64,000 bases of DNA, from sequence record KM672662.1. One strand, 5' to 3'. The DNA is from Acinetobacter phage YMC13/03/R2096. The translations under genes were made by a program, and so were the position numbers. The number at the start of each line of letters is the position of its first letter. Position 1 is the first letter of the stretch. A model generated the notes under the pieces. That model was not told the origin of the DNA. It ran no database searches and worked only from the letters and a program-made list of their open reading frames with translations. Shown here piece by piece: positions 16,051 to 51,016 of this stretch.

Positions 16051-16136
16051 GGGTGATGTTGGGGTGTTGGTCAACCCCATCAGACTGTAAATCTGACGTG
16101 AAAGCTGTCTAGGTTCGAATCCTAGATCACCCACCA
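16051..16136 (+). tRNA. tRNA-Tyr (GTA)
   Basis: Acceptor GGGTGAT/ATCACCC. Anticodon loop is ctGTAaa. Long variable arm. T-arm is GGTTCGAATCC. CCA is encoded. Confidence 0.8.
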
Positions 16137-16139
16137 AAT

Positions 16140-16214
16140 AGTACCTTAGTTCAGGGGTAGAACGCAGAACTGATAATTCTGAGGTCGATGGTTCGAAACC
16201 ATCAGGTACTACCA
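16140..16214 (+). tRNA. tRNA-Ile (GAT)
   Basis: Acceptor AGTACCT/AGGTACT pairs perfectly. Loop is ctGATaa. CCA is encoded. Confidence 0.8.
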
Positions 16215-16243
16215 ATTTAAAAGTTTTTAAAAGTTTATTCAGG

Positions 16244-16315
16244 TCTAGTGTAGCACAACGGTAGTGCAGCAGACTGTTAATCTGTTGGTTGTTGGTTCGA
16301 ATCCAGCCTCTAGAG
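16244..16315 (+). tRNA. tRNA-Asn (GTT)
   Basis: Loop ctGTTaa, D-stem GCAC/GTGC and G73. The acceptor has one mismatch and no CCA is encoded. Confidence 0.55.
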
Positions 16316-17057
16316 CCTGAGTAAATTAAGAATTACCCTTCGGGGTATGGGTCGTGTATAACCCTTAGATAAACTGCAAAACAGTATAAAGTCGTAACGG
16401 CAGTTATGGCGCAGAGTAAAAATCTGTCAAGTACACACTCAAGGTATCATACTTATGTGGCGTAGAGCCAATCGGTGTAAACCATTTAAGTATGGGGGTG
16501 TAATGCTCCTGAGTCGATAGGCAATAAGAGAACTTGAAGGTATCTAGCGAAGTTGATTGTCAAGTCAAAACGCTGTTTACCATTGTGAGAGGTATATAGA
16601 GTTTAACAGGTGGTGCTGAATCTCGTAGTCCTAAACCAAGTGGACAATATATGCTTGAAACATCGTGCATGGTAAAGCACATTAGGTAGTGTGGTATTGA
16701 TGGGTTCAAAAGATCTGTTAGCCACAGAGAAACCACTATCTATGCAATACAAATTTCATTTTAGGAAAAAATTAAATTCAAAAGTGTTTCTCACGTTGGC
16801 ATGAAAGGTGCTTACATAGTAATGGGTTGTCCATTGCACATTTAACCTGAAAGGTTATTTGTATTTTCATGAAAGGATTATGTTTGGTAGGCATACTAGC
16901 ATAGTTTGAGTATTGGGAGAGTAGTTCCAACGTCTAAGAGTGGTTAGCTATACTGACCAGCACTGATCACTACTATATAAAGTATAGTGGATAATGAGGG
17001 AAAAGATAATCCTCTCAAGGTGGTCATTTAAACGTGTAATCTCAGCGTTTTACTTGT

Positions 17058-17132
17058 GGCTCTGTAGCATAGTGGATTATGCGCCTCCCTGTCTAGGAGA
17101 AAAACGCCAGTTCGAGTCTGGTCAGAGTCGCC
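17058..17132 (+). tRNA. tRNA-Asp (GTC)
   Basis: Acceptor GGCTCTG/CAGAGTC. Loop is ctGTCta. G73. CCA is encoded. Confidence 0.75.
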
Positions 17133-17136
17133 AGTA

Positions 17137-17211
17137 TTGTCGTATAGTGTAATGGTTAGCACAGAAGACTTTGACTCTTCTAGTTTAGGTTCGAGTCCTA
17201 ATTCGACTACC
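17137..17211 (+). tRNA. tRNA-Gln (TTG)
   Basis: Anticodon stem GAAGA/TCTTC pairs perfectly. Loop is ctTTGac. T-arm is TTAGG-TTCGAGT-CCTAA. The acceptor has one mismatch. Confidence 0.6.
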
Positions 17212-17214
17212 AAA

Positions 17215-17290
17215 TGGGTCACTAGCACAATGGTAGTGCAGTTGCTTTGCAAGCATCAGGTTAAGGGTTCGAGTCCCTTGTGTATCCACC
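17215..17290 (+). tRNA. tRNA-like element, anticodon probably TGC (Ala). Acceptor pairing is poor.
   Basis: D-stem GCAC/GTGC, loop ttTGCaa, T-arm AAGGG-TTCGAGT-CCCTT and a CCA end. Only 5 of 7 acceptor base pairs could be formed by hand. Confidence 0.35.
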
Positions 17291-17292
17291 AA

Positions 17293-17368
17293 TATTCCAT
17301 TCGACTAGCGGTTAGGTCGCTTCCCTTTCAAGGAAGTAGCACGAGTTCGAATCTCGTATGGAATACCA
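17293..17368 (+). tRNA. tRNA-Glu (TTC)
   Basis: Acceptor ATTCCAT/ATGGAAT pairs perfectly. Stem CTTCC/GGAAG. Loop ctTTCaa. CCA is encoded. Confidence 0.8.
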
Positions 17369-17370
17369 AT

Positions 17371-17447
17371 AGGACGTTAGCTCAGTTGGTTAGAGCAAGA
17401 GCCTTTTAAGTTCGAGGTCATAGGTTCAAATCCTATACGTCCTACCA
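17371..17447 (+). tRNA. tRNA-Lys (TTT)
   Basis: Acceptor AGGACGT/ACGTCCT pairs perfectly. D-arm is GCTCAGTTGGTTAGAGC. Loop ctTTTaa. CCA is encoded. Confidence 0.8.
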
Positions 17448-17452
17448 ACAAT

Positions 17453-17526
17453 GGTGACTTTGGTGTAATGGTTTGCATCACTCCCTGTGAAGGAGAAGGT
17501 CAGGGTTCAAATCCCGAAGTCACACC
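17453..17526 (+). tRNA. tRNA-His (GTG) with G-1
   Basis: Loop ctGTGaa. Acceptor GTGACTT/AAGTCAC is preceded by an extra G. CCA is encoded. Confidence 0.65.
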
Positions 17527-18225
17527 AAGAATTTTAAGAATTTCAAACGAGTAGAGGTACAGTCCTGAAAGTTTGAAAGTGGGGCGACACCTGCCTGAAG
17601 TAGTAGCTAATAATGGCCTGTTAGTGAATCTAAGTGGTGTGACTTAACTGACTTGGAGAGAAAGGTCGGGGCAGAGCACAAGTAGCTGAGATGGATTAGC
17701 GCTACCCTGAAGAGGTTGAGAGGTTGGATCGTTACCAACATTGTGCACCAAATTTTTAAAAGAAGAATTATTTTAGGATTACCATAACCTAAAGGCTCGA
17801 AGGGGCGGTCTGCAACATCGTTGTTGGTGAGTTGAAGTCTCACATGGTAATCCAAAGTGATTTTTATAGAGGTTAAACCAGATAGGTTCTGGGACACCCT
17901 GCTAAGGTGATCGTGTTAGAAATAGCATTCGGATCGAGACCGATGGCCTCTGCCAAATTTGTTGTGCGCTCCACAGGTTGATCCTGTTACGGTTATCCTC
18001 AAGACCAGACCGCAACAAAGCAACATCAATGGCTTGTCTAAAGTAACGCTGTTGATGGGGCAAATGCAGACACCGATTCGCCTCTGACCTAGTTAAGCAC
18101 ACTAATCGGTTTTTTCTTAGGGCTATTGGACAGGTAATTACCCCTCCTTTAGTTACGACAAGATATCTTCGTGGCTCGCTACCTTGAAGGCATCCCAGTT
18201 AGGGTTCTGGTTAAAAACTCACTAC

Positions 18226-18300
18226 AGTCCCTTAGCTCAATCGGGAGAGCAACACTCTTACAAGGTGAAGGTAGTAGGTTCGAAACCTACAGGGACTACC
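18226..18300 (+). tRNA. tRNA-Val (TAC)
   Basis: Acceptor AGTCCCT/AGGGACT pairs perfectly. Loop ctTACaa. T-arm is GTAGG-TTCGAAA-CCTAC. CCA is encoded. Confidence 0.75.
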
Positions 18301-18301
18301 A

Positions 18302-18391
18302 AGGTGGGTAGCGTCAAGGTGACAAAGCGGGCTTGAACCCCGTGCCAATTGTGATGAGCAGTTGAGAGTTCGATTCTTTTACCCATCGCCA
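18302..18391 (+). tRNA. tRNA-Ser (TGA), class II
   Basis: Acceptor GGTGGGT/ACCCATC. Stem GCGGG/CCCGT. Loop ctTGAac. Long variable arm. G73 and CCA. Confidence 0.6.
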
Positions 18392-18392
18392 A

Positions 18393-18466
18393 GCGTTTAT
18401 AGTGTAGTGGTAACACCCTGTACTTCCAATTCAGTATCTTCGGTTCGAATCCGAATAGACGCTCCA
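18393..18466 (+). tRNA. tRNA-Gly (TCC)
   Basis: Acceptor GCGTTTA/TAGACGC. Loop ctTCCaa. T-arm is TTCGG-TTCGAAT-CCGAA. U73 and CCA. Confidence 0.75.
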
Positions 18467-18477
18467 GATTATGTTTA

Positions 18478-18600
18478 TGGACACTTCCTAAGGTTCTTTC
18501 TACAGGTTCGAAACTGTTTTAAGAATTGCTGGTGCTAGGTTTAGCGTCAAGAATCATTCGAAGGGTTCTTGGGGTGGTGAGTTCGATTCTCACAGTGTTC
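18478..18600 (+). ncRNA. aberrant 123-nt tRNA-like element
   Basis: GGACACT pairs with AGTGTTC on 7 of 7 positions, enclosing about 110 nt. Inside are two T-arm-like hairpins (ACAGG-TTCGAAA-CTGT and GTGAG-TTCGATT-CTCAC) and a 6-bp stem CAAGAA/TTCTTG. There is no canonical anticodon arm and no CCA. Confidence 0.3.
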
Positions 18601-18619
18601 CCCCTATTTTAAAGTTTAT

Positions 18620-18696
18620 CTCTGTGTAGCTCAGTTTGGTAGAGCACTCGCTTTGGGAGTGAGGGGTCGTAAGTTCAATTCTTACTACAGAGACCA
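18620..18696 (+). tRNA. tRNA-Pro (TGG)
   Basis: Acceptor CTCTGTG/TACAGAG. Stem CTCGC/GTGAG. Loop ttTGGga. T-arm is GTAAG-TTCAATT-CTTAC. CCA is encoded. Confidence 0.7.
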
Positions 18697-18783
18697 GTTA
18701 TGAAGTGTTTGTACAGCTATCAGCTCACCGTTTAAAGGATACGGACAAGTCGGCTCGACTAAAGACTCACTTCATATGTTTTT

Positions 18784-18860
18784 GGGTAGTTGAAGGGAAT
18801 GGCATACCTTTCACGCTTAGAACGTGAAGTTTCTGAGTTCGAGTCTCAGACTACCTACCA
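18784..18860 (+). tRNA. class-I tRNA with anticodon TAG, presumably Leu (CUA/CUG)
   Basis: Acceptor GGGTAGT/ACTACCT. Stem TCACG/CGTGA pairs perfectly. Loop ctTAGaa. Variable loop is 5 nt. A73 and CCA. Confidence 0.6.
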
Positions 18861-18866
18861 AATTCT

Positions 18867-18942
18867 GGGGATATAGCCCAACGGCAGAGGCAAGAGGTTT
18901 AAACCCTCTCAAGTTTCAGTTCGAATCTGAATATCCCTACCA
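18867..18942 (+). tRNA. class-I tRNA with anticodon TAA, presumably Leu (UUA/UUG)
   Basis: Acceptor GGGGATA/TATCCCT. Stem AGAGG/CCTCT pairs perfectly. Loop ttTAAac. Variable loop is 5 nt. T-arm is TTCAG-TTCGAAT-CTGAA. A73 and CCA. Confidence 0.6.
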
Positions 18943-18957
18943 GTTTAGGAGTGCTAC

Positions 18958-19239
18958 ATGGAAGTATTACTTGTTAGTGATTGTAGATGCCAAGAGCGTT
19001 ATGACTTTGCAGATATTGTAAAGGATGCTCAAGAACAAGGTATCAAAATTAAGTACACATTAGTTCCTAAGAAGATATCCTATGAAGATAGAACTTACAC
19101 ATTTGTTAATGTTGAAGATCTCACTAAGGATAAAAGTTGTATTGTTGGTAAGAAGTTTGATGATGTCTATTTGACACCAGAAGCTAAAGATGCTATACCT
19201 TTAGGGTTGCTATCATTTATACTTACAAGAATACGTTAA
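18958..19239 (+). CDS. small hypothetical protein embedded in tRNA cluster
   Basis: 93-aa ORF. An AGGAG site lies 8 nt upstream of the ATG. Confidence 0.5.
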   Translation: MEVLLVSDCRCQERYDFADIVKDAQEQGIKIKYTLVPKKISYEDRTYTFVNVEDLTKDKSCIVGKKFDDVYLTPEAKDAIPLGLLSFILTRIR

Positions 19240-19246
19240 GTTTTAA

Positions 19247-19334
19247 GTCCCTACACCCTCCAAGAGCCTTCTAAGCTCTCGACATTAAATAGGGGGAAGG
19301 TAGTCAGAGTGTTCGATTCACTGTGGGGACTCCA
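19247..19334 (+). tRNA. atypical tRNA-like element, anticodon TCT (Arg?). It has a rudimentary D-arm and a 27-nt variable region.
   Basis: Acceptor GTCCCTA/TGGGGAC and stem AGAGC/GCTCT pair perfectly. Loop ctTCTaa. T-arm is GAGTG-TTCGATT-CACTG. CCA is encoded. Confidence 0.4.
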
Positions 19335-19335
19335 A

Positions 19336-19411
19336 GCCGAATTAGCTCAGTTGGTAGAGCAGCGCACTTGTAATGCGAAGGTCGTAGACTCGGATTCTAC
19401 ATTCGGCACCA
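19336..19411 (+). tRNA. tRNA-Thr (TGT)
   Basis: Acceptor GCCGAAT/ATTCGGC pairs perfectly. D-arm is GCTCAGTTGGTAGAGC. Loop ctTGTaa. T-loop is CTCGGAT. CCA is encoded. Confidence 0.75.
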
Positions 19412-19417
19412 TATTTA

Positions 19418-19507
19418 GGTCGTGTAGCTTAAAGAAAGCAAGAGGATTTATAAACCTTTTCACTAGATAAGTGCTTGATGTGGGGGCAGTACCCACCACG
19501 ACTACCA
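19418..19507 (+). tRNA. class-II tRNA-like element with a 9-nt anticodon loop (AUUUAUAAA); identity unresolved
   Basis: Acceptor GGTCGTG/CACGACT. D-stem GCTT/AAGC. Stem AGAGG/CCTTT encloses the 9-nt loop. Long variable arm. T-arm is GTGGG-GGCAGTA-CCCAC. A73 and CCA. Confidence 0.4.
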
Positions 19508-19509
19508 AT

Positions 19510-19579
19510 AAGTCCCCCTCTGGGAGGGAAGAGGTCTCCAAAACCACTTAGCTGTGTTCGATTCACAGGGGATTTGCCA
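19510..19579 (+). tRNA. tRNA-Trp (CCA), short 70-nt form
   Basis: Acceptor AAGTCCC/GGGATTT. Loop ctCCAaa. T-arm is CTGTG-TTCGATT-CACAG. G73 and CCA. The D-arm is compact. Confidence 0.55.
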
Positions 19580-19729
19580 AATTAGATTAAGATGTTGGTG
19601 CGTGACAACCTTAATCGGCATGATTTTAGTTTATGTCGATGTGATAAACATGGCTAGATAGATATGTCGATAAAAACTAGAAATTAAAACACGTAGTATT
19701 GAAATGTTAAAAATAATTAAACAAAACAC

Positions 19730-19758
19730 TTGACAAATAGATTTTTAGTGTTATATAT
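19730..19758 (+). promoter_or_regulatory. promoter (TTGACA, 16-17-nt spacer, TATATA/TATAAT) upstream of tRNA-Met and thioredoxin
   Basis: Near-consensus -35 and -10 elements. Confidence 0.5.
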
Positions 19759-19783
19759 AATATATAAGCAATTAAGTTTTCAT

Positions 19784-19858
19784 AGCGAGGTAGTGTAACG
19801 GTTTGCACAGGGGACTCATAATCCTCTGGTTTGGGTTCGAATCCCAACTTCGCTTCCA
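19784..19858 (+). tRNA. tRNA-Met/fMet or Ile2 (CAT)
   Basis: Acceptor AGCGAGG/CTTCGCT. Stem GGGGA/TCCTC. Loop ctCATaa. T-arm is TTGGG-TTCGAAT-CCCAA. CCA is encoded. Confidence 0.7.
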
Positions 19859-20408: not shown

Positions 20409-20903
20409 ATGGAAGAAATTTGGAAGCCTGTTGAAGGTTTTGGTGGCTATGAAGTTAGTGATTTGGGTCGTGTACGTAAGGTTGACGGAACTATTGTTAA
20501 TCTATTCAACCATCCGCAAGGATACCTAAAAGTAGCCCTTAAGGTTGCTGGCCAAAAGGTTAGTAAGAAGTACGTGCATAGGCTTGTAGCTGCTGCATTT
20601 ATACCTAACCCAGACAACCTTCCTTATGTAAATCATAAGAATGGCAAGCAGTGGTGTAATGAGGTTGATAACCTTGAGTGGATATCCTCTAAAGATAACC
20701 ATACACATGCTCGTGAGACTGGTCTTATTGACTATTACAAGTCACACCGAGTAGTTTCTGTCGAGGATGTACGATACATACGTAAGCATATAAAACCTTA
20801 CGATAAAGAATTCGGTAATGGTGCTATTGCAAAGCGATTGGGCTTAAGCCGAGACCAAGTTACTGACATTGCCCTGTACCGGAATTACAAAGACGTGATA
20901 TAG
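20409..20903 (+). CDS. free-standing HNH homing endonuclease
   Basis: EVSDLGRVR..., a NUMOD4-like N-terminus, and YVNHKNGKQWCNEVDNLEWISSKDNHTHA (HNH_3). ATG at 20409 follows AGAGGA. It sits immediately upstream of the intron-containing terminase gene. Confidence 0.7.
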   Translation: MEEIWKPVEGFGGYEVSDLGRVRKVDGTIVNLFNHPQGYLKVALKVAGQKVSKKYVHRLVAAAFIPNPDNLPYVNHKNGKQWCNEVDNLEWISSKDNHTHARETGLIDYYKSHRVVSVEDVRYIRKHIKPYDKEFGNGAIAKRLGLSRDQVTDIALYRNYKDVI

Positions 20904-20912
20904 GAGGTATTA

Positions 20913-20990
20913 ATGTCGAATATATTTGCACCGTGTAGTCCAGTGCAAGCAAAGTTACTGCAAAGTGATGCAACAATTACAGTTTATGGT
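20913..20990 (+). CDS. terL: terminase large subunit, exon 1 (MSNIFAPCSPVQAKLLQSDATITVYG)
   Basis: ATG follows AGGAGG. The frame hits TGA right after ..VYGG and a group I intron follows. The exon end is approximate, 20990 or 20994. Confidence 0.6.
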
Positions 20991-21312
20991 GGGTGAATAT
21001 AGGCTCCTTTAAGTAGTAATACTTATCGAATAACCTTGTGAAATGCTGGAAACCCCTTAGAGCCTTGAGTACCGAAGTGTAACAACCTTAAGGATTGGGC
21101 AATCAGCAGGGAAGCCTCTTATTAGAGGAACCCTCAACGACTATCGAAAGGGTAACGAACCGAGTAGAGTAGGGGCAAGTGTCCCGAAGTGCAAGGCACC
21201 TCAAGTAGGTGAAGATATAGTCTGGACTCATGGGAAACCTTGAGCATGCAATTGGCTAATGTGCTGTTGCATGGGTTGGCTCTAACGAAGCCTTCTTAAC
21301 ACAATCACTATG
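20991..21312 (+). ncRNA. group I intron 1 in terL (ORF-less, about 320 nt)
   Basis: Contains conserved group I core elements: an R-like element CAACGACTAT and an S-like element GAAGATATAGTCTG. It also has the blocks CCTTTAAGT..ACTTATCGAATAACC, GAAATGCTGGAAACCCC and CAATCAGCAG, which are shared with intron 2 and with the nrdB intron. It ends ..CACTATG (omega-G). Confidence 0.65.
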
Positions 21313-21382
21313 GGGTCTGCGAAAACCTATGGAGGTCTACTAAGACACCTTCAATATGTAAATAGTCCTCATTATGTTGGGT
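21313..21382 (+). CDS. terL: terminase large subunit, exon 2 (GSAKTYGGLLRHLQYVNSPHYVG, P-loop region)
   Basis: A 23-codon open frame lies between the two introns. GSAKT preceded by exon-1 YG gives a Walker-A-like segment. Confidence 0.55.
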
Positions 21383-21631
21383 GAAAATACATGCCCCTTT
21401 AAGTGGTGACACTTATCGAATAACCCCTCTAATTGCTGGGAACCCTCTTTGAGGCAATCAGCAGCCAAGCCCAGCAGGGAAGGTTCAACGACTATTCCGA
21501 CAGGAAGTACACTCAAGTGAGTGGAAACGGGGGGCATCTCGCAGAGATGATGATATAGTCTGATCTACATGGTGACATGTAGCAAGGTTAAAACCTTGGA
21601 GTTAGCTTAACGAGCTAACACTAACAAAATG
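21383..21631 (+). ncRNA. group I intron 2 in terL (ORF-less, about 250 nt)
   Basis: Begins GAAAATACATGCCCCTTTAAGTGG..ACTTATCGAATAACC. Contains GCTGGGAACCC, CAATCAGCAG, CAACGACTAT (R) and GATGATATAGTCTG (S). A terminal hairpin is followed by ..AACAAAATG (omega-G at 21631). Confidence 0.65.
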
Positions 21632-22905
21632 ATGTTATCCGTAAAAATGAAGTAGTTCTGAGGGCTGGTGGTGGTGCTTTTGAAGAAGCCAAAGCTTTAT
21701 ACAAGGCATTTGAGCCGAGAGTTAAAATCACAGAGAAACCTATGAGGTTTCGCTTTCCTTCTGGTGCTGTAATTAACTTTGCAGGTGCTGAAGATGAGAA
21801 AGCTATGGAAAAATATCGTGGTCTTAACTTGACTGGCGTGATGGTCGATGAAGGTACACAGTTATCAGAAAGACAAATTTGGTTCTTGATCTCTCGTTTG
21901 CGTAACGGTAAAGATCCAAACATTATGCCAAATATATGGATTACATGTAACCCTGACCCTGATAGTTATTTGTTTGAATGGGTTAAGTGGTATTTATATC
22001 CTGTAGGGCATCCTCTTGCTGGAAGACCTGATAAAGATAAGAATGGATTAAAAAGATATTTCGTATCGACTCCAGAAGGTTTAGTTTGGAGTGATAATGA
22101 ACAGGAATTACTTGATAAGTATCCGCATTTATTTACAAAAGGGACTAGACCACTAAGCTTTAGATTTATTGGTGGTACAGTTTACGATAACCCACCTCTT
22201 CTTAAGAACTCACCTCAATATCTTCAAAACCTACTCCAACAGAAAGACCGAGTAGTGCGAGAACGTGAGTTGTACGGCAACTGGTTTGCACGTAGGGAAG
22301 ATTCAAGTTACTTCAACAGGTCTTGGTGTGAGATAGTTGATAAGCCTCCTGAAAGGGTCCGTAAAAGGGTTCGTTCTTGGGACTTGGCTTTCACATTACC
22401 AACTGAGACAAACCCAAACCCCGATTATACCTGTGGTGTTCGTCTGAGTAAAGATGATGAAGGTACAATCTATGTTGAAGACATGGTTCTTGAAAGGGTT
22501 GGTTCTGGGCAAATTATTGAGTTAATTGCAAAGACTGGTCTAGAAGATGCTGAGATGTTTGGTGTTGTTGAAACAACAATCCCTCAAGATGCTGGTGGTA
22601 TGGCTAAATTTGCAGCTAGGGATATGGCCTCTAAGCTAAGAGAGCATGGTGTATCTCCTATTGTAGTTCCTGTAGGTAATAAAGGCAAGCTCGTTCGTTT
22701 TATTCCATTCTCAGGTGCAGCACAAAATAAACATGTGAAGATTGTACGTGGTGATTGGAATGCAGCCTTCTTTCATCAGTTAGAAGCTTTTGGAAGTGGA
22801 AATAAGGCTGTGCACGATGATGCTGTCGATGCTGTTGCTGATGCTTATAAAAGAGTAGCAGAAAATAGAACGATTGACTATGCCATCGACTTAGCAGTTT
22901 TATAA
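21632..22905 (+). CDS. terL: terminase large subunit, exon 3 (ATPase Walker B and nuclease domain)
   Basis: ..VIRKNEVVLRAGGGAFEE..LTGVMVDEG (Walker B), plus a C-terminal RNaseH-like nuclease region. The frame is open only from 21625. The spliced product would be about 473 aa. Confidence 0.75.
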
Positions 22906-22916
22906 AGGAGTAGTCA

Positions 22917-23009
22917 TGGCTATAAATGAAGTACAAACAGTTTCTGGTTTCAGTGATACTGGGATGGTTGTTAAAAAACGTGTTAGAAGAAAAAACTCGA
23001 CCCATTAAA
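22917..23009 (+). CDS. small ORF (30 aa) between terL and portal
   Basis: AAGGAG RBS, then an ATG. Very short. Confidence 0.25.
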
Positions 23010-23055
23010 CGTTGAGTTAGGTGTTCATGGTAATACCTTCAAGGATTTAACTGAA

Positions 23056-24417
23056 ATGAATTGGGATGCTCTAACATACCCAACAAGCCTTGAAACATAC
23101 AAATTAATGGGCAAACATTTAGTTATCTCTTCAGCACTTAATCTAATTTCAACCATGATGGCTAGGGTTCCTTGGAGAATTGAAGCTTACGAGCCTAAAG
23201 AGGCTGATATGAAGAATGCTAAATTTATCACTGAAGTGTTTAATGACATGGATGAAGGTTGGCAGACTTTTATTTCAGAAGTATCAACAATGAACCAATA
23301 TGGACATTCTGTTCATGAGATTGTTTTAAGATACAGAAGATTTGAGGAAGGTTCACGATACAATGATGGTAAGATTGGCCTAAAATATTTACCAATCAGA
23401 TCACAACACAGTATTGCTGAATGGGTTTATGACCCTAATGGTAGAACCTTGCTAGGTATCACTCAGAAGATTCCTCAAACTAAAAAATATATGGGTTATA
23501 AAGAAAAAGAGATCTTTATTCCTATTGAAAGTCTCTTAATTTTCAGAGTCAATCCTCAAGATGGTAGCCCTATTGGGACAAGCCCTTTAGATGGATGTTA
23601 TAGTGCTTGGAGATACTTGGTAACTTATCAAGAAATTGAAGGTACAACTGTTAGTAAAAACCTTAACGGTGTGGGTATTTTTAAAATCCCATCTAAGTAT
23701 ATGGCTGAGCATGCCACTCCAGCAGACCGAAAGGTTTATGAGAATGCAAAACGTATTGTTTCTAATGTGAACAATGGCGAGCAAGCTGGTATGGTTATCC
23801 CTTCAGATTTTGATGAACTTAGTGGTAAGCCTTACTTTGGTTTTGAAGTTATTAACTCTACAGCATCTAATACATCTGTTACAGGTGAGATTGTTAAAAG
23901 ATACACCAATGAAATTCTTCAATGCTTGAGTGCAGATTTATTACAACTTGGTTCTACCAATACTGGTTCTTACTCTCTTGCCGATAGTAAAACTTCTCTA
24001 GTAGAAACTGTAGTTGAATCTCGTATGATGGTTATTAAAGAATTAATGAATAGGAAGTTAATTCCAATCATTGCAGAAGCTAATGGTATGGATTTAGAAA
24101 GACTACCTAAATTTGAATTTGGTGATATCTCTAGACCAGACCTTGAGACTTTCGCTAAGGCAATCCAACAACTTACTGCTGTTAATATGGTATATCGCTC
24201 AGCACGTAATGTCAACAGAATTGCAGAGATTCTAAGTCTTCCTGACATGGTTGACCCTGATATCTCTAAAGAGGAACTTGACAAGTTACTTGGTGTTGAC
24301 CAAGAAATGCAAAGTAAGAGTGGTAAAGGTTACGCTTCTGATACTGGTGGACTTAATGGAACATCAAATAAAGTAGCTAAGAAGGATAACTCAGCAAATA
24401 ATTTACAAAATAAGTGA
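23056..24417 (+). CDS. portal protein
   Basis: 453 aa. It lies directly after terL and before the protease. Call rests on position and size. Confidence 0.6.
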   Translation: MNWDALTYPTSLETYKLMGKHLVISSALNLISTMMARVPWRIEAYEPKEADMKNAKFITEVFNDMDEGWQTFISEVSTMNQYGHSVHEIVLRYRRFEEGSRYNDGKIGLKYLPIRSQHSIAEWVYDPNGRTLLGITQKIPQTKKYMGYKEKEIFIPIESLLIFRVNPQDGSPIGTSPLDGCYSAWRYLVTYQEIEGTTVSKNLNGVGIFKIPSKYMAEHATPADRKVYENAKRIVSNVNNGEQAGMVIPSDFDELSGKPYFGFEVINSTASNTSVTGEIVKRYTNEILQCLSADLLQLGSTNTGSYSLADSKTSLVETVVESRMMVIKELMNRKLIPIIAEANGMDLERLPKFEFGDISRPDLETFAKAIQQLTAVNMVYRSARNVNRIAEILSLPDMVDPDISKEELDKLLGVDQEMQSKSGKGYASDTGGLNGTSNKVAKKDNSANNLQNK

Positions 24418-46106: not shown

Positions 46107-48878
46107 TTATTGACAGTTATCACATTCTTCATGTCGCTTAATATCACCAGATCCCCTCATAGAGTAGATGTAATATAAAGCTAAGATACCTGCATTTTCC
46201 AAAGCATATTTGTGAACCTTCATAATATACTCTGGAGTGTCATTACTTGTAAAATACAAGTTGATTGACTGTTGCTGATCAATATATTGTTGTCGTTGTG
46301 CACACAAATCCAAATGTTTGATCATGTCAATCTCAAAGGCAGTTCTAAAGACATCCTTCTCATGCTGAGTCAACCAGTGAACATGTTGTACAGAACCTTT
46401 ATGCTTATTGATGTCATTGATTACGTCTTCATTGTAAACACCACGTTCCTTCATGATCTCTAGAAGGACCTTATTAACCCTCCAGATATCCCCTCCAGCA
46501 CTCTGCTTAACGAACACCATTGCAACATCCAGACCAATACCTTCAGAAGCACCAGCCATAATCTCTGCTGTTGACTTTGTAGGTGGCATCATCATGGTAG
46601 TGGCATTACGGATTCCTAAATGAGCACACCCTTCAGGCATACCAACTTCACGAGCTAGCCACTTAGAAGCAGCTAAGGTTTGGTCTCTCATACCCTTAAA
46701 GATTTCTTCATTTAACCAGAAGCTCTCAAGGCTACCTACCACAATTCTACGTTTTTGTAGTAGTGTGTGGAAACCTAGTACACCTGTACCAACTGCACGG
46801 AATCTCTTGGTGAAGGCTAAGATTTTTCTAAATGCCAAGGCATCCTCTTTATCTTGAGCCATTCTCGTTTCCATGAACTCAATGTAGTCACTCACATTAC
46901 AGTCTTGCATAACATGCGCAATAAATGCTAAGTGAGGACATCTTGATTTCCACTCATCGTATAAGTCAAGGTTCAAGTTTAGAATTACACAAGAGAATGT
47001 ATGCTTCTCATCACTACCAAGTAACACTTCTTGGCAATTCATTGTATTCAAACCATTGAACATCAACATGTTACGTTTTGGCTCAAGTGCACAATATGTA
47101 TCATCAAATCTTCCTTGGTCGATCACTTCATCAACACATACAAATCTTTCAGCAGAACGTTGAGGTTTTCTTTCACTCCATTTTAGGCGGTGTGTTTTTA
47201 AACCTAACTGACTCAACTTAAAGAGACCTGTACTCGATACAAGAAGACGATAAGCATCTTGGCATTCATACAGTCCTTTATCACCTGTACCATTATTGAG
47301 AGGTAATTCTTTTAGACCACCTACATCCCTCAAGACAACCTTTGAAGAAACACCAAGTGTTTGTAACATCAATTGCACATCTTGTAAGAATGTCTTGTGA
47401 ATGCTTACCACTTGGATAGATTCATTTTCACCATTACGAGCAATAGTTCCATCTGAATCTAGGAGTCCAGCAAACCATTCCAATCGGCTTTCAACAGTGT
47501 ACTCAGATGTTGGTACAAAGAATTTATCCTTAAGCCCTTCACTGTGAGTAAGCTTAATACGATCACCACCTTGAAGTCCTGACACTGAAGAAACGCAAGT
47601 TATATTTTCAAGTAACTCCTTCTTCTTACCATACAAGTATGTGTGTTTTTTACCTTTGTATTCAAAACCATCACCAGTGAAGAATCCATTAGTGTAAGCA
47701 TGTCCGAGGGTCTTGTCACCTAAAATAACTGGTAGATCAAATTTAGATAGTCGATCACCAGACTTCAACTCGTAGGCACGTTTAATGACCTCATTGCCAT
47801 CCTCACCAACAACCTTAAAGCGGTGATACTCTGTGCAATCTAATTCATACCCTGAATCAGTTACCACTTTAACTAACTTCTGATTTTCACCAGTTTTGAT
47901 AATTGTCACTTCAGACCATTCAAAACCATTCCACACCTCGACCTGTTGTCCCTCAAGGTCAGAAATCGTTTGATATCCACCTTTAGTTAAGATTAATGTC
48001 TCAGGTGCAACACACAAATTAGAAGCTTTCGCTGTCATACCTGCATCTTTAAATGCCTGAGCTAAGTGGCGGTTCATTTCATCAATCTTAGTGAAGTAAC
48101 CCTTACCACGCTGCATCTTGATAGCAATAGCTTTAGCTAATAGGGCAACTGCTTCTGGGTCATCCTTGACTAACTTCTCAATGTACTCGTCCTTACATAA
48201 CCATGCTGGGTTATTACTTTCAGGTCGTTTGAATAGGTACTTTAAAACTTCCTCAAACTCAGGATGTTCAATACTAACAGCATAAGATAAACTACCTCTA
48301 CGGCTACCTTGAACAACCTCATCCATACAATTAATCAAGTCACGAATGACAGGCATCACCCCACCACCATAACCACCTCTAGGCAGTTTCTTACCTTTAT
48401 AGGCCCAGTCATCAACTGAGTAAGATGTACCATGCGAGTGCTTAGTCAAGATACCTGCTTCAGTCACACAATCGTAACGAGAGAACAAGTTGTCACCAAC
48501 ATAACCACCAGCACAACTTACTGTTGACCCCCTTTCAGGTAAACCACTGTTCGCCAATAAAGGAGTTGAACAAGACACATAACCATCCCAAAGTACGTCA
48601 AAAAACACTTCCTCCCAAGTTTTACCAGCCGTATAAGTATCCACATTCCACCAAGAAGGGTACTTATCTGGTGCATGTTTAGCTAAAGTCTTAGCAATCA
48701 TTTTATAGCGAGATTTTACAGTCTCACCATTCCAAGAATATTTTTCAAAGAACAATTGAGTACCACCAGTGGTAAACCATTTAGGGATCTCTCCATGTTC
48801 TTGTAGTTTTTTTCTGAGTTGACTGTAACTATCAACCCCGTATAATTCCAATGTTTCTAAATAAGATAAAACAGCCAC
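46107..48878 (-). CDS. nrdA: ribonucleotide reductase large subunit (class I NrdA/NrdE-like) containing an intein
   Basis: N-terminal ATP-cone-like region. The active-site motif ASNLC is interrupted after the Cys and resumes as CQEVLL. The C-terminus carries the CxxC tail ECDNCQ. Confidence 0.85.
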   Translation of the reverse strand: MAVLSYLETLELYGVDSYSQLRKKLQEHGEIPKWFTTGGTQLFFEKYSWNGETVKSRYKMIAKTLAKHAPDKYPSWWNVDTYTAGKTWEEVFFDVLWDGYVSCSTPLLANSGLPERGSTVSCAGGYVGDNLFSRYDCVTEAGILTKHSHGTSYSVDDWAYKGKKLPRGGYGGGVMPVIRDLINCMDEVVQGSRRGSLSYAVSIEHPEFEEVLKYLFKRPESNNPAWLCKDEYIEKLVKDDPEAVALLAKAIAIKMQRGKGYFTKIDEMNRHLAQAFKDAGMTAKASNLCVAPETLILTKGGYQTISDLEGQQVEVWNGFEWSEVTIIKTGENQKLVKVVTDSGYELDCTEYHRFKVVGEDGNEVIKRAYELKSGDRLSKFDLPVILGDKTLGHAYTNGFFTGDGFEYKGKKHTYLYGKKKELLENITCVSSVSGLQGGDRIKLTHSEGLKDKFFVPTSEYTVESRLEWFAGLLDSDGTIARNGENESIQVVSIHKTFLQDVQLMLQTLGVSSKVVLRDVGGLKELPLNNGTGDKGLYECQDAYRLLVSSTGLFKLSQLGLKTHRLKWSERKPQRSAERFVCVDEVIDQGRFDDTYCALEPKRNMLMFNGLNTMNCQEVLLGSDEKHTFSCVILNLNLDLYDEWKSRCPHLAFIAHVMQDCNVSDYIEFMETRMAQDKEDALAFRKILAFTKRFRAVGTGVLGFHTLLQKRRIVVGSLESFWLNEEIFKGMRDQTLAASKWLAREVGMPEGCAHLGIRNATTMMMPPTKSTAEIMAGASEGIGLDVAMVFVKQSAGGDIWRVNKVLLEIMKERGVYNEDVINDINKHKGSVQHVHWLTQHEKDVFRTAFEIDMIKHLDLCAQRQQYIDQQQSINLYFTSNDTPEYIMKVHKYALENAGILALYYIYSMRGSGDIKRHEECDNCQ
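47037..48014 (-). other. intein (326 aa) with LAGLIDADG homing-endonuclease domain inside nrdA
   Basis: Starts with Cys289 (CVAPETLILT). Two dodecapeptide motifs: YTNGFFTGDGF and EWFAGLLDSDGT. Ends ..LMFNGLNTMN, with Cys as the +1 residue. The joined extein reads ASNL-CQEVLL. Confidence 0.75.
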
Positions 48879-48888
48879 AAATACCTCC

Positions 48889-49395
48889 TTACTTACTTCC
48901 TTGTAATCCTTTATTATCTTCTGAATCTTCCATGATCAGATTCAAGAGTTCTTCTTGTTCCTCTTGTTCTTTCTTCCTCATATTATTCCAAGCTTCTACA
49001 AACATAGCCTCAGACCAGTTACTTTCATACTCTCGGTTTTGACCCTTAGTGAAGAAATCTGGCATCTGGTAACCGTATGTATTTAAGTTAAACATCTTAG
49101 CCACTTTAGAATCCTTCTGAGTAACTTGGAACTCTTTAGGGATTTTATCTACAGGAACCTGCAAACGAGTCAAGAAAGTAAAGATTCGGAAGCGCACAAA
49201 ATCAATGTACTCGGCTGTTGTATACCCATTGAGTGAACCTGAAGGGATTGCCATATCAATGATTCGCTTCTCATGCTCTAACACGTAGTGGCAAGCTTGT
49301 AGTAACTTTCCAAACATTTCTTCATGCTCATGTAGAGGTTTTCCTACTTCATGGAAATAGGTGTTAAAATGTTCTGCGGCGTAAATTCCATGCAA
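48889..49395 (-). CDS. nrdB: ribonucleotide reductase small subunit, exon 2
   Basis: LHGIYAAEHFNTYFHEV...GSLNGYTTAEYIDFVRFRIFTFLTRLQVP aligns with the C-terminal half of R2. It supplies H241-equivalent and the acidic C-terminus. The exon starts after omega-G of ..CCCATG. Confidence 0.65.
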   Translation of the reverse strand: MHGIYAAEHFNTYFHEVGKPLHEHEEMFGKLLQACHYVLEHEKRIIDMAIPSGSLNGYTTAEYIDFVRFRIFTFLTRLQVPVDKIPKEFQVTQKDSKVAKMFNLNTYGYQMPDFFTKGQNREYESNWSEAMFVEAWNNMRKKEQEEQEELLNLIMEDSEDNKGLQGSK

Positions 49396-50251
49396 CATGG
49401 GTTGTTCAGGTGTGCTCGTTACACACACCCCGTAGAGTACTTCACCACTCAAGTACTCACAGCTTACACTTTCATGTAAGATCAGACTATATCATCACCA
49501 CAAGGTTTTACTTGTTGTGGTGCTTCCCACTTCGGTCTTACTTAAGACCTACTCCCCGAAGGGATAGTCGTTGAGGATTCTAAACCTAATTCCAACCACA
49601 AAGCTTTCCAACGTTTTTTATGCCTAATTAACGAAACATATCTACTGTGTATTCCAAAAACTCTAGAGATCTGTTTGTTAGTAAAACCTGCTAAGCACAT
49701 ACGAATAACCTTTTCAGCATCATCCTTTGTCAGTTTAACAGTCGAGTTCCTATATCTAGCACCACTTAACGAGACATTTTTATTGGGATTTTCCCAAAAA
49801 TTACGATAGTGGTGATGCACATTATCCTCTTGTTTTACAACCTCTAAATTTTCTATACAATTGTTTAGCTTGTTAGCATCAATATGATTTATTACAAATC
49901 CCTTTGGTATAACACCTTTGATGCACTCCCAAACGAATCTGTGACCATTTTCAGTCACACCATTGAATTCATATTGCCGATAACCTGTAGTTGATAAACA
50001 GCCTCTCATAAGCTGTCCTCTCTTTCCATACACATTTCCAAATACATCGCAACTGTATCCAGAAAATTTTGGATGTTTAAATTTTTCCATAATTACCTCC
50101 ATAATAAGAGGTTGGAATTAGGTTTAGCTTTCCTGCTGATTGCCCAATACTTTAGATTTTTACTCAGTGTTTAAATTTTTCAACACTTCAGTACTAAAGT
50201 CTCTAAGGGGTTTCCAGCATTTCAAGAAGTTTATTGAGGACTTGCAAATTA
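49396..50251 (-). ncRNA. group I intron in nrdB (about 856 nt) carrying an HNH homing endonuclease ORF
   Basis: On the - strand it begins TAATTTGC.. right after exon codon GAT. It contains GAAATGCTGGAAACCCCTTAGAG and GGGCAATCAGCAGG. After the ORF come CAACGACTAT (R), GATGATATAGTCTGATCTTACATG (S) and 3' hairpins. Confidence 0.65.
49542..50102 (-). CDS. intron-encoded HNH homing endonuclease
   Basis: 186 aa. Contains ..GYRQYEFNGVTENGHRFVWECIKGVIPKGFVINHIDANKLNNCIENL, an HNH motif with N and H residues, plus a C-terminal helix-turn-helix-like region. It lies between intron core elements. Confidence 0.7.
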   Translation of the reverse strand: MEVIMEKFKHPKFSGYSCDVFGNVYGKRGQLMRGCLSTTGYRQYEFNGVTENGHRFVWECIKGVIPKGFVINHIDANKLNNCIENLEVVKQEDNVHHHYRNFWENPNKNVSLSGARYRNSTVKLTKDDAEKVIRMCLAGFTNKQISRVFGIHSRYVSLIRHKKRWKALWLELGLESSTTIPSGSRS

Positions 50252-51016
50252 ATCCTCATCTAGTGCACTCTGATTAGCAATTTGGGCAATAACTTTAATT
50301 AAGTTAAAACCGTTTGTCTGGAAGCTCTTAAGGATAGCAAAGCTAGAGAATAACAAAGCTGTCTCTGTTAAAGAGAAGCACAAGCATGCAAGCATCTTGT
50401 TTTCATCTCGCATTAACCCATCTAACCATTCCATACGTTCATTGAGCACAGGGTCATCAATGTATGATGTGTAGTAATCATCGGTATCTAGTCCAAGTAC
50501 AATGTTAATCTCATTGTATGTTCGTGCATGGACCATCAACTCAATCATTGCTAAGGCAGAAGCACCAGCACGGGATTCATGTCGAGGGAATACTTTAATG
50601 AATAATCCATTCCAGAATTCATCACCAACAATTAATTCATACTGTAAGAATAAGTGTAGAACTGTTTTTACTGCATGTAGTTGCTCTTTAGTTAGCACAT
50701 ACTCAAGTTCCATCTGGTCATTCTTGACTTCCATTTCACTCTTAAACCACATCTGCTCTTCAAGCTGCTGGTCAGCAATCTCAAGAATCTTTGGGTACTT
50801 AATCTCATAGCCACTATTGGGTGATGTAATACGGGTTTGCACTAACCCAGTTTTCTCTGAATTTAGTGTTTTGTTTATTGTCACATAAACGAATTTCCCT
50901 TCAGGGTTTTTCTCATCCTTGACATTGATGATTACCTTTCCAGTTGGTGGTGGTAAAAATCCAATCTTCTCAACCTGACCTTCGGTTAAATCTACCTCAA
51001 TATTAATTTTAGACAT
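50252..51016 (-). CDS. nrdB: ribonucleotide reductase small subunit, exon 1
   Basis: VGDEFW.., ALAMIELMVHARTY (E115/H118 equivalents), SLTETALLF (E204 equivalent) and ..SALDED. Splicing to exon 2 recreates DED-LH (the E238-x-x-H241 pattern). About 100 aa of the N-terminus is non-homologous. Confidence 0.65.

Follow-up and report, generated by a model that had tools for sequence, protein, structure and literature searches.

Multiple group I introns in the terminase and ribonucleotide reductase (RNR) genes of phages are well documented, and finding them in one more phage is in itself ordinary. In Staphylococcus phage Twort, three introns lie in the single gene orf142, with exon skipping; in the Bastillevirinae, two or three group I introns lie in the terminase gene terL, where exon skipping is likewise documented (PMC11878797); Staphylococcus phage HM01, a Silviavirus, has four introns in tandem; and in Bacillus phage SPbeta the R2 gene bnrdF holds a group I intron with the HNH gene yosQ, alongside an intein in bnrdE. 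Pseudomonas phage vB_PsyM_KIL1 (Flaumdravirus, NC_030934) is a ~90-kb myophage, related to the one considered here, in which split terL, portal and nrdB genes are annotated. Here we describe a 64,000-nucleotide (nt) stretch of Acinetobacter phage YMC13/03/R2096 (KM672662.1), referred to throughout, at its full length, as the window, in which terL is interrupted by two introns, I1 and I2, and nrdB by a third, I3. A sequence-only reading of the window had taken these as one family that spread within this genome. We posit instead that they are, in all likelihood, three separate, optional mobile introns of one widespread phage subfamily, whose modules are shared with the introns of unrelated phages, and not recent copies of one another made within this genome.

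The terL introns recall those of Twort, which are also clustered, of IA2 type and without an open reading frame (ORF), although the hosts, phage families and insertion sites of Twort and the Bastillevirinae are different, and splicing is experimental there whilst here it is read from the sequence. The nrdB intron with its HNH gene, next to an intein in nrdA, is reminiscent of SPbeta; however, SPbeta is a temperate Gram-positive phage, and the likeness rests on the gene and the HNH family. KIL1 offers the nearest parallel for nrdB, since its intron there shares the site of I3 exactly (GAUGAGGAU followed by U), along with its P1 and P5 extension, and retains a remnant of a homologous HNH ORF. 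Yet KIL1 differs in that its terL intron sits at another codon (~237), its HNH ORF has decayed, and there is no intron pair around the P-loop.

The source of the window is an AM24/Herod-like Acinetobacter myophage: a BLAST search against 50,697 phage records found it ~98% identical to the Acinetobacter baumannii myophages Herod, AM24, Ab15, Bestia and Mithridates (~97 kb each) and identical to none. Intron boundaries were set by alignment to the uninterrupted terL of AM24 and Ab15 and the uninterrupted nrdB of AM24, which gave the following features.

20913-20994, plus strand: terL exon 1, 27 codons plus 1 nt, ending in GGGU
20995-21307, plus strand: intron I1, 313 nt, no ORF; guide AUAG plus GCUC at 20999-21006; last base A
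21308-21382, plus strand: terL exon 2, 75 nt, coding for the remainder of the Walker A loop, SMGSAKT...HYVG
21383-21631, plus strand: intron I2, 249 nt, no ORF; guide ACAU plus GCCC at 21389-21396; ends in G
21632-22905, plus strand: terL exon 3, 98-99% identical to AM24, Ab15 and Herod
50252-51016, minus strand: nrdB exon 1, ending ...GAU GAG GAU, the D-E-D of the ExxH iron-ligand motif
49396-50251, minus strand: intron I3, 856 nt, in nrdB; no P2; ends in G
48889-49395, minus strand: nrdB exon 2, beginning UUG CAU GGA (L-H-G)
Spliced junctions, predicted from sequence: GGGU followed by CUAUGGGG and GGGU followed by AUGUUAUC in terL; GAGGAU followed by UUGCAU in nrdB

The coordinates earlier proposed for I2 and I3 proved exact, and I1 and I2 are indeed without an ORF. 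The 3' end of I1, which had been placed at an ATG, lies 5 nt earlier, at A21307; the CTATG after it is terL exon and belongs to the codons of Ser28 and Met29.

Precise removal of the introns restores uninterrupted frames that match the intronless homologues: the spliced TerL, which carries Pfam Terminase_6N and Terminase_6C, is identical to that of AM24 at 475/476 residues, and the spliced NrdB at 423/423. Each intron falls in the codons of a catalytic motif: I1 and I2 flank the Walker A loop of TerL, and I3 splits the ExxH iron-ligand motif of the RNR R2 protein. The ribozyme would remove each from the mRNA, so that these essential proteins are made intact. Exon 1 has only ~83% nucleotide identity to AM24 (63/74 in the BLAST alignment) with 27/27 residues conserved, all differences being synonymous, and both exon 1 and I1 are 100% identical to Herod. 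None of the 50,697 phage records searched contains I2. The introns are unannotated in the Herod and Ab15 records, where the interrupted genes are called truncated or as two separate genes, and our literature search found no paper on the introns of AM24-like phages. Skipping of exon 2 (20913-20994 joined to 21632 onward) would be in frame (..VYGG joined to YVIRKNE..) and would give a TerL minus its Walker A loop; such skipping has been described for the TerL of phage SIOphi (PMC11878797).

All three elements are best read as self-splicing introns of group I and share one structural subtype, IA2-like in having P7.1/7.2 and P9.1/9.2, an assignment which we presume from the resemblance to phage introns of Twort and T4 and not from a formal classifier. 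Against the Rfam model Intron_gpI (RF00028; gathering score 50 bits), I1 scores 78.8 bits (20975-21244) and I2 96.6 bits (21360-21582), both over model positions 1-253; I3 with its ORF reaches only 43.6 bits, because the ORF splits the intron, and the ORF-less allele of Herod reaches 82.4 bits. Exactly three copies each of the R element (CAACGACTAT) and the S element (GATATAGTCTG) are found in the 64 kb, where 0.03 would be expected by chance, which excludes a fourth intron. P1, P3 to P9, P10, P7.2 and P9.1/P9.2 were located by hand in all three, with a complementary core, P7.1 in I2 and I3, and P2 in the terL introns only; helix sequences vary from intron to intron, yet remain complementary. 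P1, with a U.G wobble at the splice site, pairs GGGU/GCUC in I1, GGGU/GCCC in I2 and GAGGAU/GUCCUC in I3, and P10 pairs CUAU/AUAG, AUGU/ACAU and UUGCA/UGCAA, respectively. P7 (GACUAU/AUAGUC) is the same in all three and includes the G-binding G-C pair, whereas the terminal G of the intron (omega-G) is present in I2 (G21631) and I3 (G49396) and absent in I1 (A21307). I2 shows covariation: across eight orthologues its 77 pairs are 99.7% paired, and seven have changes in both partners, where shuffles gave ~1 and slid controls 0-1, a signal that comes mostly from one diverged sequence, contig L049. Minimum free energy (MFE) folding, which cannot represent the P3/P7 pseudoknot, gave z-scores of -3.17 for I2 (significant) and -0.69 for I1 (not significant).

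The sequence-only reading was right that the similarity among the three goes beyond the universal core: P2/J2-3 is shared by I1 and I2, and P3 to P5a by I1 and I3. Its long blocks common to all three held only in part, for two of them are two-copy and the remainder belongs to the universal core: CCTTTAAGT.GT.A.ACTTATCGAATAACC, which is P2 plus J2/3, occurs in I1 and I2 but not in I3, which is without P2; GAAATGCTGGAAACCCCTTAGAG is exact in I1 and I3, but I2 has TAATTGCTGGGAACCCTCTTTGAG; and GATGATATAGTCTGATCT occurs in I2 and I3, but I1 has GAAGATATAGTCTGGACT. Pairwise BLAST gives the same picture, with I1 and I2 78% identical over 68 nt (52.7 bits) in the guide sequence, P2 and J2/3, I1 and I3 87-89% identical over 90 nt in P3 to P5a (including a 24-nt exact run) with additional short core matches, and I2 and I3 joined by core matches only.

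The three are not, however, each other's closest relatives. In a summed-similarity ranking that included a handful of foreign introns, I1 comes closest to the portal and nrdB introns of KIL1, then to I3, with I2 eighth; I3 comes closest to the KIL1 introns, of which the portal intron matches both I1 and I3 best overall; and I2 comes closest to the DNA-polymerase intron of Acinetobacter phage nACB1, followed by Vibrio phage D181 and Staphylococcus phage HM01. Within the phage collection, the best foreign matches of I2 exceed its matches to I1 or I3 (D181, 78.6% over 186 nt, 143 bits), and it is also strongly matched in Staphylococcus and Bacillus phages. A neighbour-joining tree of about 18 introns (227 core columns) places I2 with D181 and nACB1 (bootstrap 54-68) and I3 with the KIL1 nrdB intron (bootstrap 80), a group that I1 joins loosely. 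Core identity is 63% between I1 and I2, 65% between I1 and I3 and 54% between I2 and I3, as against 72-73% between I2 and the introns of nACB1, D181 and HM01. Phages of Pseudomonas, Erwinia, Staphylococcus and Vibrio, as well as marine phages, have introns with the same non-core modules. The longest exact foreign match of I1 is a 35-nt stretch of P7.1 in Erwinia phage MIF8, that of I2 a 26-nt stretch of P7.1/7.2 in one of the four HM01 introns, and exact copies of the P2 block are present in six metagenome and four viral contigs. As we read these comparisons, the extra similarity marks a widespread phage intron subfamily and not multiplication in this genome. Exact-pattern scans for the I1 tail in viral contigs and for the I1 5' end in metagenomes returned 0 matches each, and contig L026, considered as a further copy of I1 on the strength of one J7/9-P9 match, turned out to hold an unrelated intron pair. 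In four marine metagenome or viral contigs (L028, L031, L032, L036), introns with the P2/J2-3 module seem to split the T-arm of a tRNA-like gene (...GGTCATCGGT, intron, TCGATT...), an unusual position for a tRNA intron.

The distribution of the terL introns among relatives was compared in about 25 related sequences, comprising the window, its GenBank relatives and contigs L039-L055. An exact look-up of the 387-residue product of terL exon 3 led to ten assemblies, and a diverged lineage (L049-L055; exon 3 ~77% identical) was reached through cluster representatives of HNH proteins; an exact look-up of the upstream HNH protein of the window returned no record, and TerL relatives in IMG/VR included none near enough to inform. 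The comparison turns on the gene just upstream of terL:

20409-20903, plus strand: free-standing homing-endonuclease gene, 164 residues, NUMOD4 plus HNH_3 (Pfam NUMOD4 9.8e-10, HNH_3 4.7e-07)

This gene lies between a thioredoxin gene and terL, with its stop 10 nt before the terL ATG; Herod has it, whereas AM24 and Ab15 do not. In Herod it is accompanied by I1 but not by I2, and all three elements are missing from AM24, Ab15, Bestia and Mithridates. Six of the ten assemblies share the arrangement of the window, three have a 266-residue NUMOD4/HNH_3 gene and I2 without I1, and the last (L048) is a short fragment limited to exon 3 and the 3' portion of I2. In the diverged lineage, L049 carries the 266-residue HNH gene with I2 only, L050-53 a 166-residue HNH gene with I1 and I2, and L054 and L055 a third HNH gene (167 residues, 51% identical) with three introns, which brings the totals to ten contigs with the HNH gene, I1 and I2, four with the 266-residue HNH gene and I2 only, and two with the third HNH gene, I1, I2 and a further intron, Ix. 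All four combinations of presence and absence of I1 and I2 thus exist, and the two are therefore independent units, which runs counter to a spread within this genome. The upstream gene differs among carriers of I2, three being found with it; I1 never occurs without a gene of the HNH164 family (14/14 I1-bearing sequences: Herod, the window and 12 contigs), be it the gene itself, a homologue 93% identical in nucleotides or one 51% identical in amino acids, and the four genomes without such a gene are without I1. The 266-residue gene (L039:2181-2981, L047, L049:2501-3301) occupies the same site upstream of terL, where it is found with I2 and without I1, and its first 38 nt are identical to those of the HNH gene of the window, so that three endonuclease genes are known at one locus.

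The DNA around the insertion sites bears comparable traces. Exon 1 exists as three alleles which are 15-18% diverged in nucleotides and encode the same amino acids save one N-terminal residue; each is tied to a different upstream content, and the flanking DNA is 98-99% identical. Synonymous differences also cluster in the terL codons just 3' of the I1 site. Exon 2 of the window is identical over 73/73 aligned nt to contigs with I2 but no I1. As the 5' block of HNH gene, exon 1 and I1 matches Herod, and exon 2 with I2 matches these I1-less contigs, the arrangement of the window looks like a recombinant of a Herod-like 5' block and an I2-bearing allele. Such patterns are expected of homing with co-conversion; in collaborative homing, reviewed together with the life cycle of homing-endonuclease genes in PMC3984707, a free-standing endonuclease gene adjoins a gene with an ORF-less intron and is co-inherited with a diverged exon tract, as in terL, although three alternative HNH genes at one locus set these phages apart from the systems described. 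It is most likely, judging from these sequences, that I1 moves with the upstream HNH gene by collaborative homing: the endonuclease would cut intron-less terL, and repair would copy the HNH gene, exon 1 and I1 together. I2, which has no dedicated enzyme, would probably hitch-hike on recombination begun by any of the upstream HNH genes. Mobilisation in trans, which the sequence-only reading had offered for both terL introns, is plausible for I1 by the upstream HNH gene with which it always co-occurs, but nothing supports the HNH of the nrdB intron, whose target is unlike terL. Indeed, action of that HNH on terL was considered and set aside, the target sequences being unrelated and the two HNH proteins only 22% identical. 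A precedent for help in trans exists in T4, where mobE mobilises a defunct nrdB intron (PMC2790892).

The nrdB intron follows a different course, as it carries its own endonuclease gene, set, as previously noted from the sequence, between the CAATCAGCAG block and the R element.

49542-50090, minus strand: intron-encoded homing endonuclease with HNH_3 and HTH, 182 residues (Pfam HNH_3 1.8e-12)
50110-50127, minus strand: 5' arm of an 18-bp helix that extends P6, is perfect and closes the ORF-containing loop
49580-49597, minus strand: 3' arm of the same helix, of which CTAAACCTAATTCCAACC, the 5' arm, is the exact reverse complement

The ribosome-binding site of this ORF (GGAGG) lies within the 3' strand of the P6a hairpin, and its final ~20 codons overlap P6', P7 and P7.1. 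Pfam scores above the cut-offs place both the 164-residue and the 182-residue protein among the HNH_3 (I-HmuI-like) endonucleases, and the latter is 41% identical to yosQ over residues 50-176. The ORF is intact in the window, with exact copies in three other assemblies; in Ab15 it has an internal deletion of ~400 nt, in Herod it is missing, and in KIL1 it has decayed, whilst AM24, Bestia and Mithridates are without the whole intron. Eleven synonymous differences from AM24 fall within about 35 nt of the insertion site on the exon 2 side. I3 is orthologous to the KIL1 nrdB intron and would be a classical mobile intron, driven by its own HNH endonuclease. The adjoining nrdA (R1; 46107-48878, minus strand) contains an intein with a LAGLIDADG domain at about residues 296-520 (Pfam Intein_splicing, LAGLIDADG_3), and intein and intron thus sit side by side in the RNR genes, as in SPbeta.

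Herod adds a further element to this history. Its nrdB intron (L005:1650-1971) and I1 (21094-21145 in the window) share a 52-nt exact run from P5' to P7, including P6, which holds both sides of the pair AGGG/CCCU where the ORF-bearing alleles have AGGA/UCCU. The ORF-less state of Herod is derived, because KIL1 also has the architecture of an ORF closed by a helix, and the simplest single event suggested by these alignments is that I1 gene-converted the nrdB intron of Herod and thereby deleted its endonuclease gene. Cross-talk between paralogous introns would therefore appear to be real, in Herod rather than in the window.

A comparable case comes from L054:3086-3971 (Logan SRR29668600) and L055:2954-3839 (ENA ERZ1030151), where three introns fall in the first 52 codons of terL, in the order I1, a micro-exon of 8 nt (CGAUGGGU), Ix, a 67-nt exon and I2. 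Ix measures 249 nt, scores 88.6 bits in Rfam and is 82.4% identical over 245 nt to I2 of the same contig, above any foreign intron compared. Judged by this identity, spread within one gene holds for Ix and I2, in these two contigs only. The 5' exons of I1, Ix and I2 all end in GGGU, as the conserved guide GCYC, which abuts the conserved P2 module, pairs with GGGU, and two metagenomic introns with the same P2 module also follow GGGU; the glycine-rich P-loop would offer several such sites. RNA-guided insertion or plain selection for splice-competent sites could explain the shared GGGU, and it is less likely that the GCYC-guide introns I1, Ix and I2 colonised successive GGGU sites of the P-loop by insertion of the reverse-splicing type.

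How should the likeness among I1, I2 and I3 be understood? That it is the universal group I core, with no special relationship, is hardly tenable: the quoted R, S and P4/P5' blocks do fit the Rfam consensus, but 30 nt of P2/J2-3 are shared with differences solely at three wildcard positions, and so are a P5 extension, the UAACGA loop of P9.2 and an ACA-rich 3' tail. The model of the sequence-only reading, in which I1, I2 and I3 derived from one another by transposition within the genome, through reverse splicing via the GCYC guide or through an HNH enzyme acting in trans, has more to draw upon. The two terL introns share guide, P2 and J2/3 as well as near-identical 5' exon ends (TTATGGTGGGT and TTATGTTGGGT, as first noted); P3 to P5a of I1 and I3 are closely alike; the exact run in Herod, with both sides of a pair, speaks for a real exchange; and Ix, similar to I2 over its full length, also stands after GGGU. 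We nonetheless regard such an origin as unlikely, since nACB1, D181 and HM01 have introns nearer to I2 than I1 or I3 are, and I1 is as near to the KIL1 introns as to I3; since the same non-core blocks are common in unrelated phages and metagenomes, at equal or higher identity, whereas overall core identity within the window is so modest; and since I1 and I2 occur independently, the nrdB target site is unlike the terL sites, and no reverse transcriptase is evident.

Some points weigh against our own reading, that of separate optional introns of one widespread subfamily. The bootstraps of the intron tree are weak (38-80%) and its introns few; the extra contigs were retrieved through an ORF that exists only in split terL, which skews the haplotype counts towards intron carriers; the link between I1 and the HNH gene may reflect mere proximity, ~90 nt; and the identity of the two terL 5' exon ends at 10/11 positions is more than a 4-bp P1 needs. 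The intronless allele already has TTATGGTGGAT and TTATGTTGGTT at these two sites, and an extended P1, considered as the cause of the match, found no support, as no extended pairing was seen.

The terminal A of I1 deserves separate consideration. The standard group I mechanism requires a terminal G, and omega-G is near-universal, so that its absence from I1 also counts against our reading. In I1 the G-binding pair of P7 is canonical and unchanged, and the standard second splicing step is therefore not obviously available. Nevertheless, the junction is tightly constrained. GGGT at the end of exon 1 and CTATG at the start of exon 2 are required because AM24 has G-S-M there; these 9 nt equal the AM24 exon, and the length of the nine-residue P-loop is kept in the TerL of KIL1 as well. 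An intron ending at G21312 would shift the frame when joined with the GGGU 5' site, or lose three P-loop residues with a 5' site after GGU, and none of the other I1 junctions bounded by U and G, enumerated by hand, retains the Walker A loop. The last base, A21307 at the end of ...CAATCA, is the same in all eight distinct sequences, drawn from two lineages (A-terminal copies being seen in the window, L001, L040-45 and L050-55). Only two pairs in the I1 alignment are changed on both sides, one in P10 (intron position 7 with exon position +2, A-U to C-G in L054 and L055) and one in P9.0 (intron positions 232 and 311, A-U to U-A in L050-52), and together these bracket the 3' splice bond at A21307, although with two events the alignment-wide statistics are weak. 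The P9.0 readings come from I1 orthologues only, the KIL1 nrdB intron and L026 being inconsistent or with unknown junctions.

We are therefore inclined to see in I1, with some reserve, a fully functional group I intron of an essential phage gene in which the terminal G has been replaced by A and the canonical G-binding site kept. The opposite view, that I1 is decaying or non-functional, its terminal A a defect, and TerL made without accurate splicing, for instance from Met29, can point to that same A facing a canonical G-binding pair, to the Herod record, which starts terL at the Met29 ATG, and to the unremarkable folding energy of I1. It strikes us as very improbable: exon 1 keeps 27/27 amino acids despite ~17% nucleotide divergence and is thus translated within TerL; no Shine-Dalgarno sequence precedes Met29; the A does not vary in either lineage; the sole two compensatory double changes fall in the pairs that flank that very site; the core helices are all intact; and Herod, whose I1 is identical, was isolated as a phage and has a named host strain of A. 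baumannii. If I1 does function with its terminal A, its 3' splice site would be defined by P9.0 and P10 alone. Our literature search found no phage intron without a terminal G, and to our knowledge a functional A-terminal I1 would be the first among bacterial or phage introns, the sole precedent we found being the hexacoral mitochondrial ND5-717. That intron has no terminal G, yet its exons are correctly ligated in vivo (PMC6545197), and because this exception is documented we still file I1 as a group I intron, if an atypical one; ND5-717 differs, however, in being giant, organellar and strictly vertical, whereas I1 is compact, optional and of a phage.

Two further features of the window lie on either side of terL. 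Upstream, a full-length GOLLD RNA (Rfam RF02032, 217.6 bits) is found at 16682-17048 on the plus strand, among 17 tRNA genes in an array at 16052-19855. Downstream, the portal gene (22916-24417) has a run of six A at ~22989-22994 where AM24, Herod and Ab15 have seven, which shifts the frame after 30 codons; the shorter run could be genuine homopolymer variation or an error of sequencing or assembly.

The about 25 sequences compared here cover the gain, decay and loss of introns and endonuclease genes at every stage, and this phage group is a natural system for testing both collaborative homing and gene conversion from intron to intron. If the reading of I1 is confirmed, it would also provide a compact, tractable ribozyme for studying the second splicing step without omega-G.

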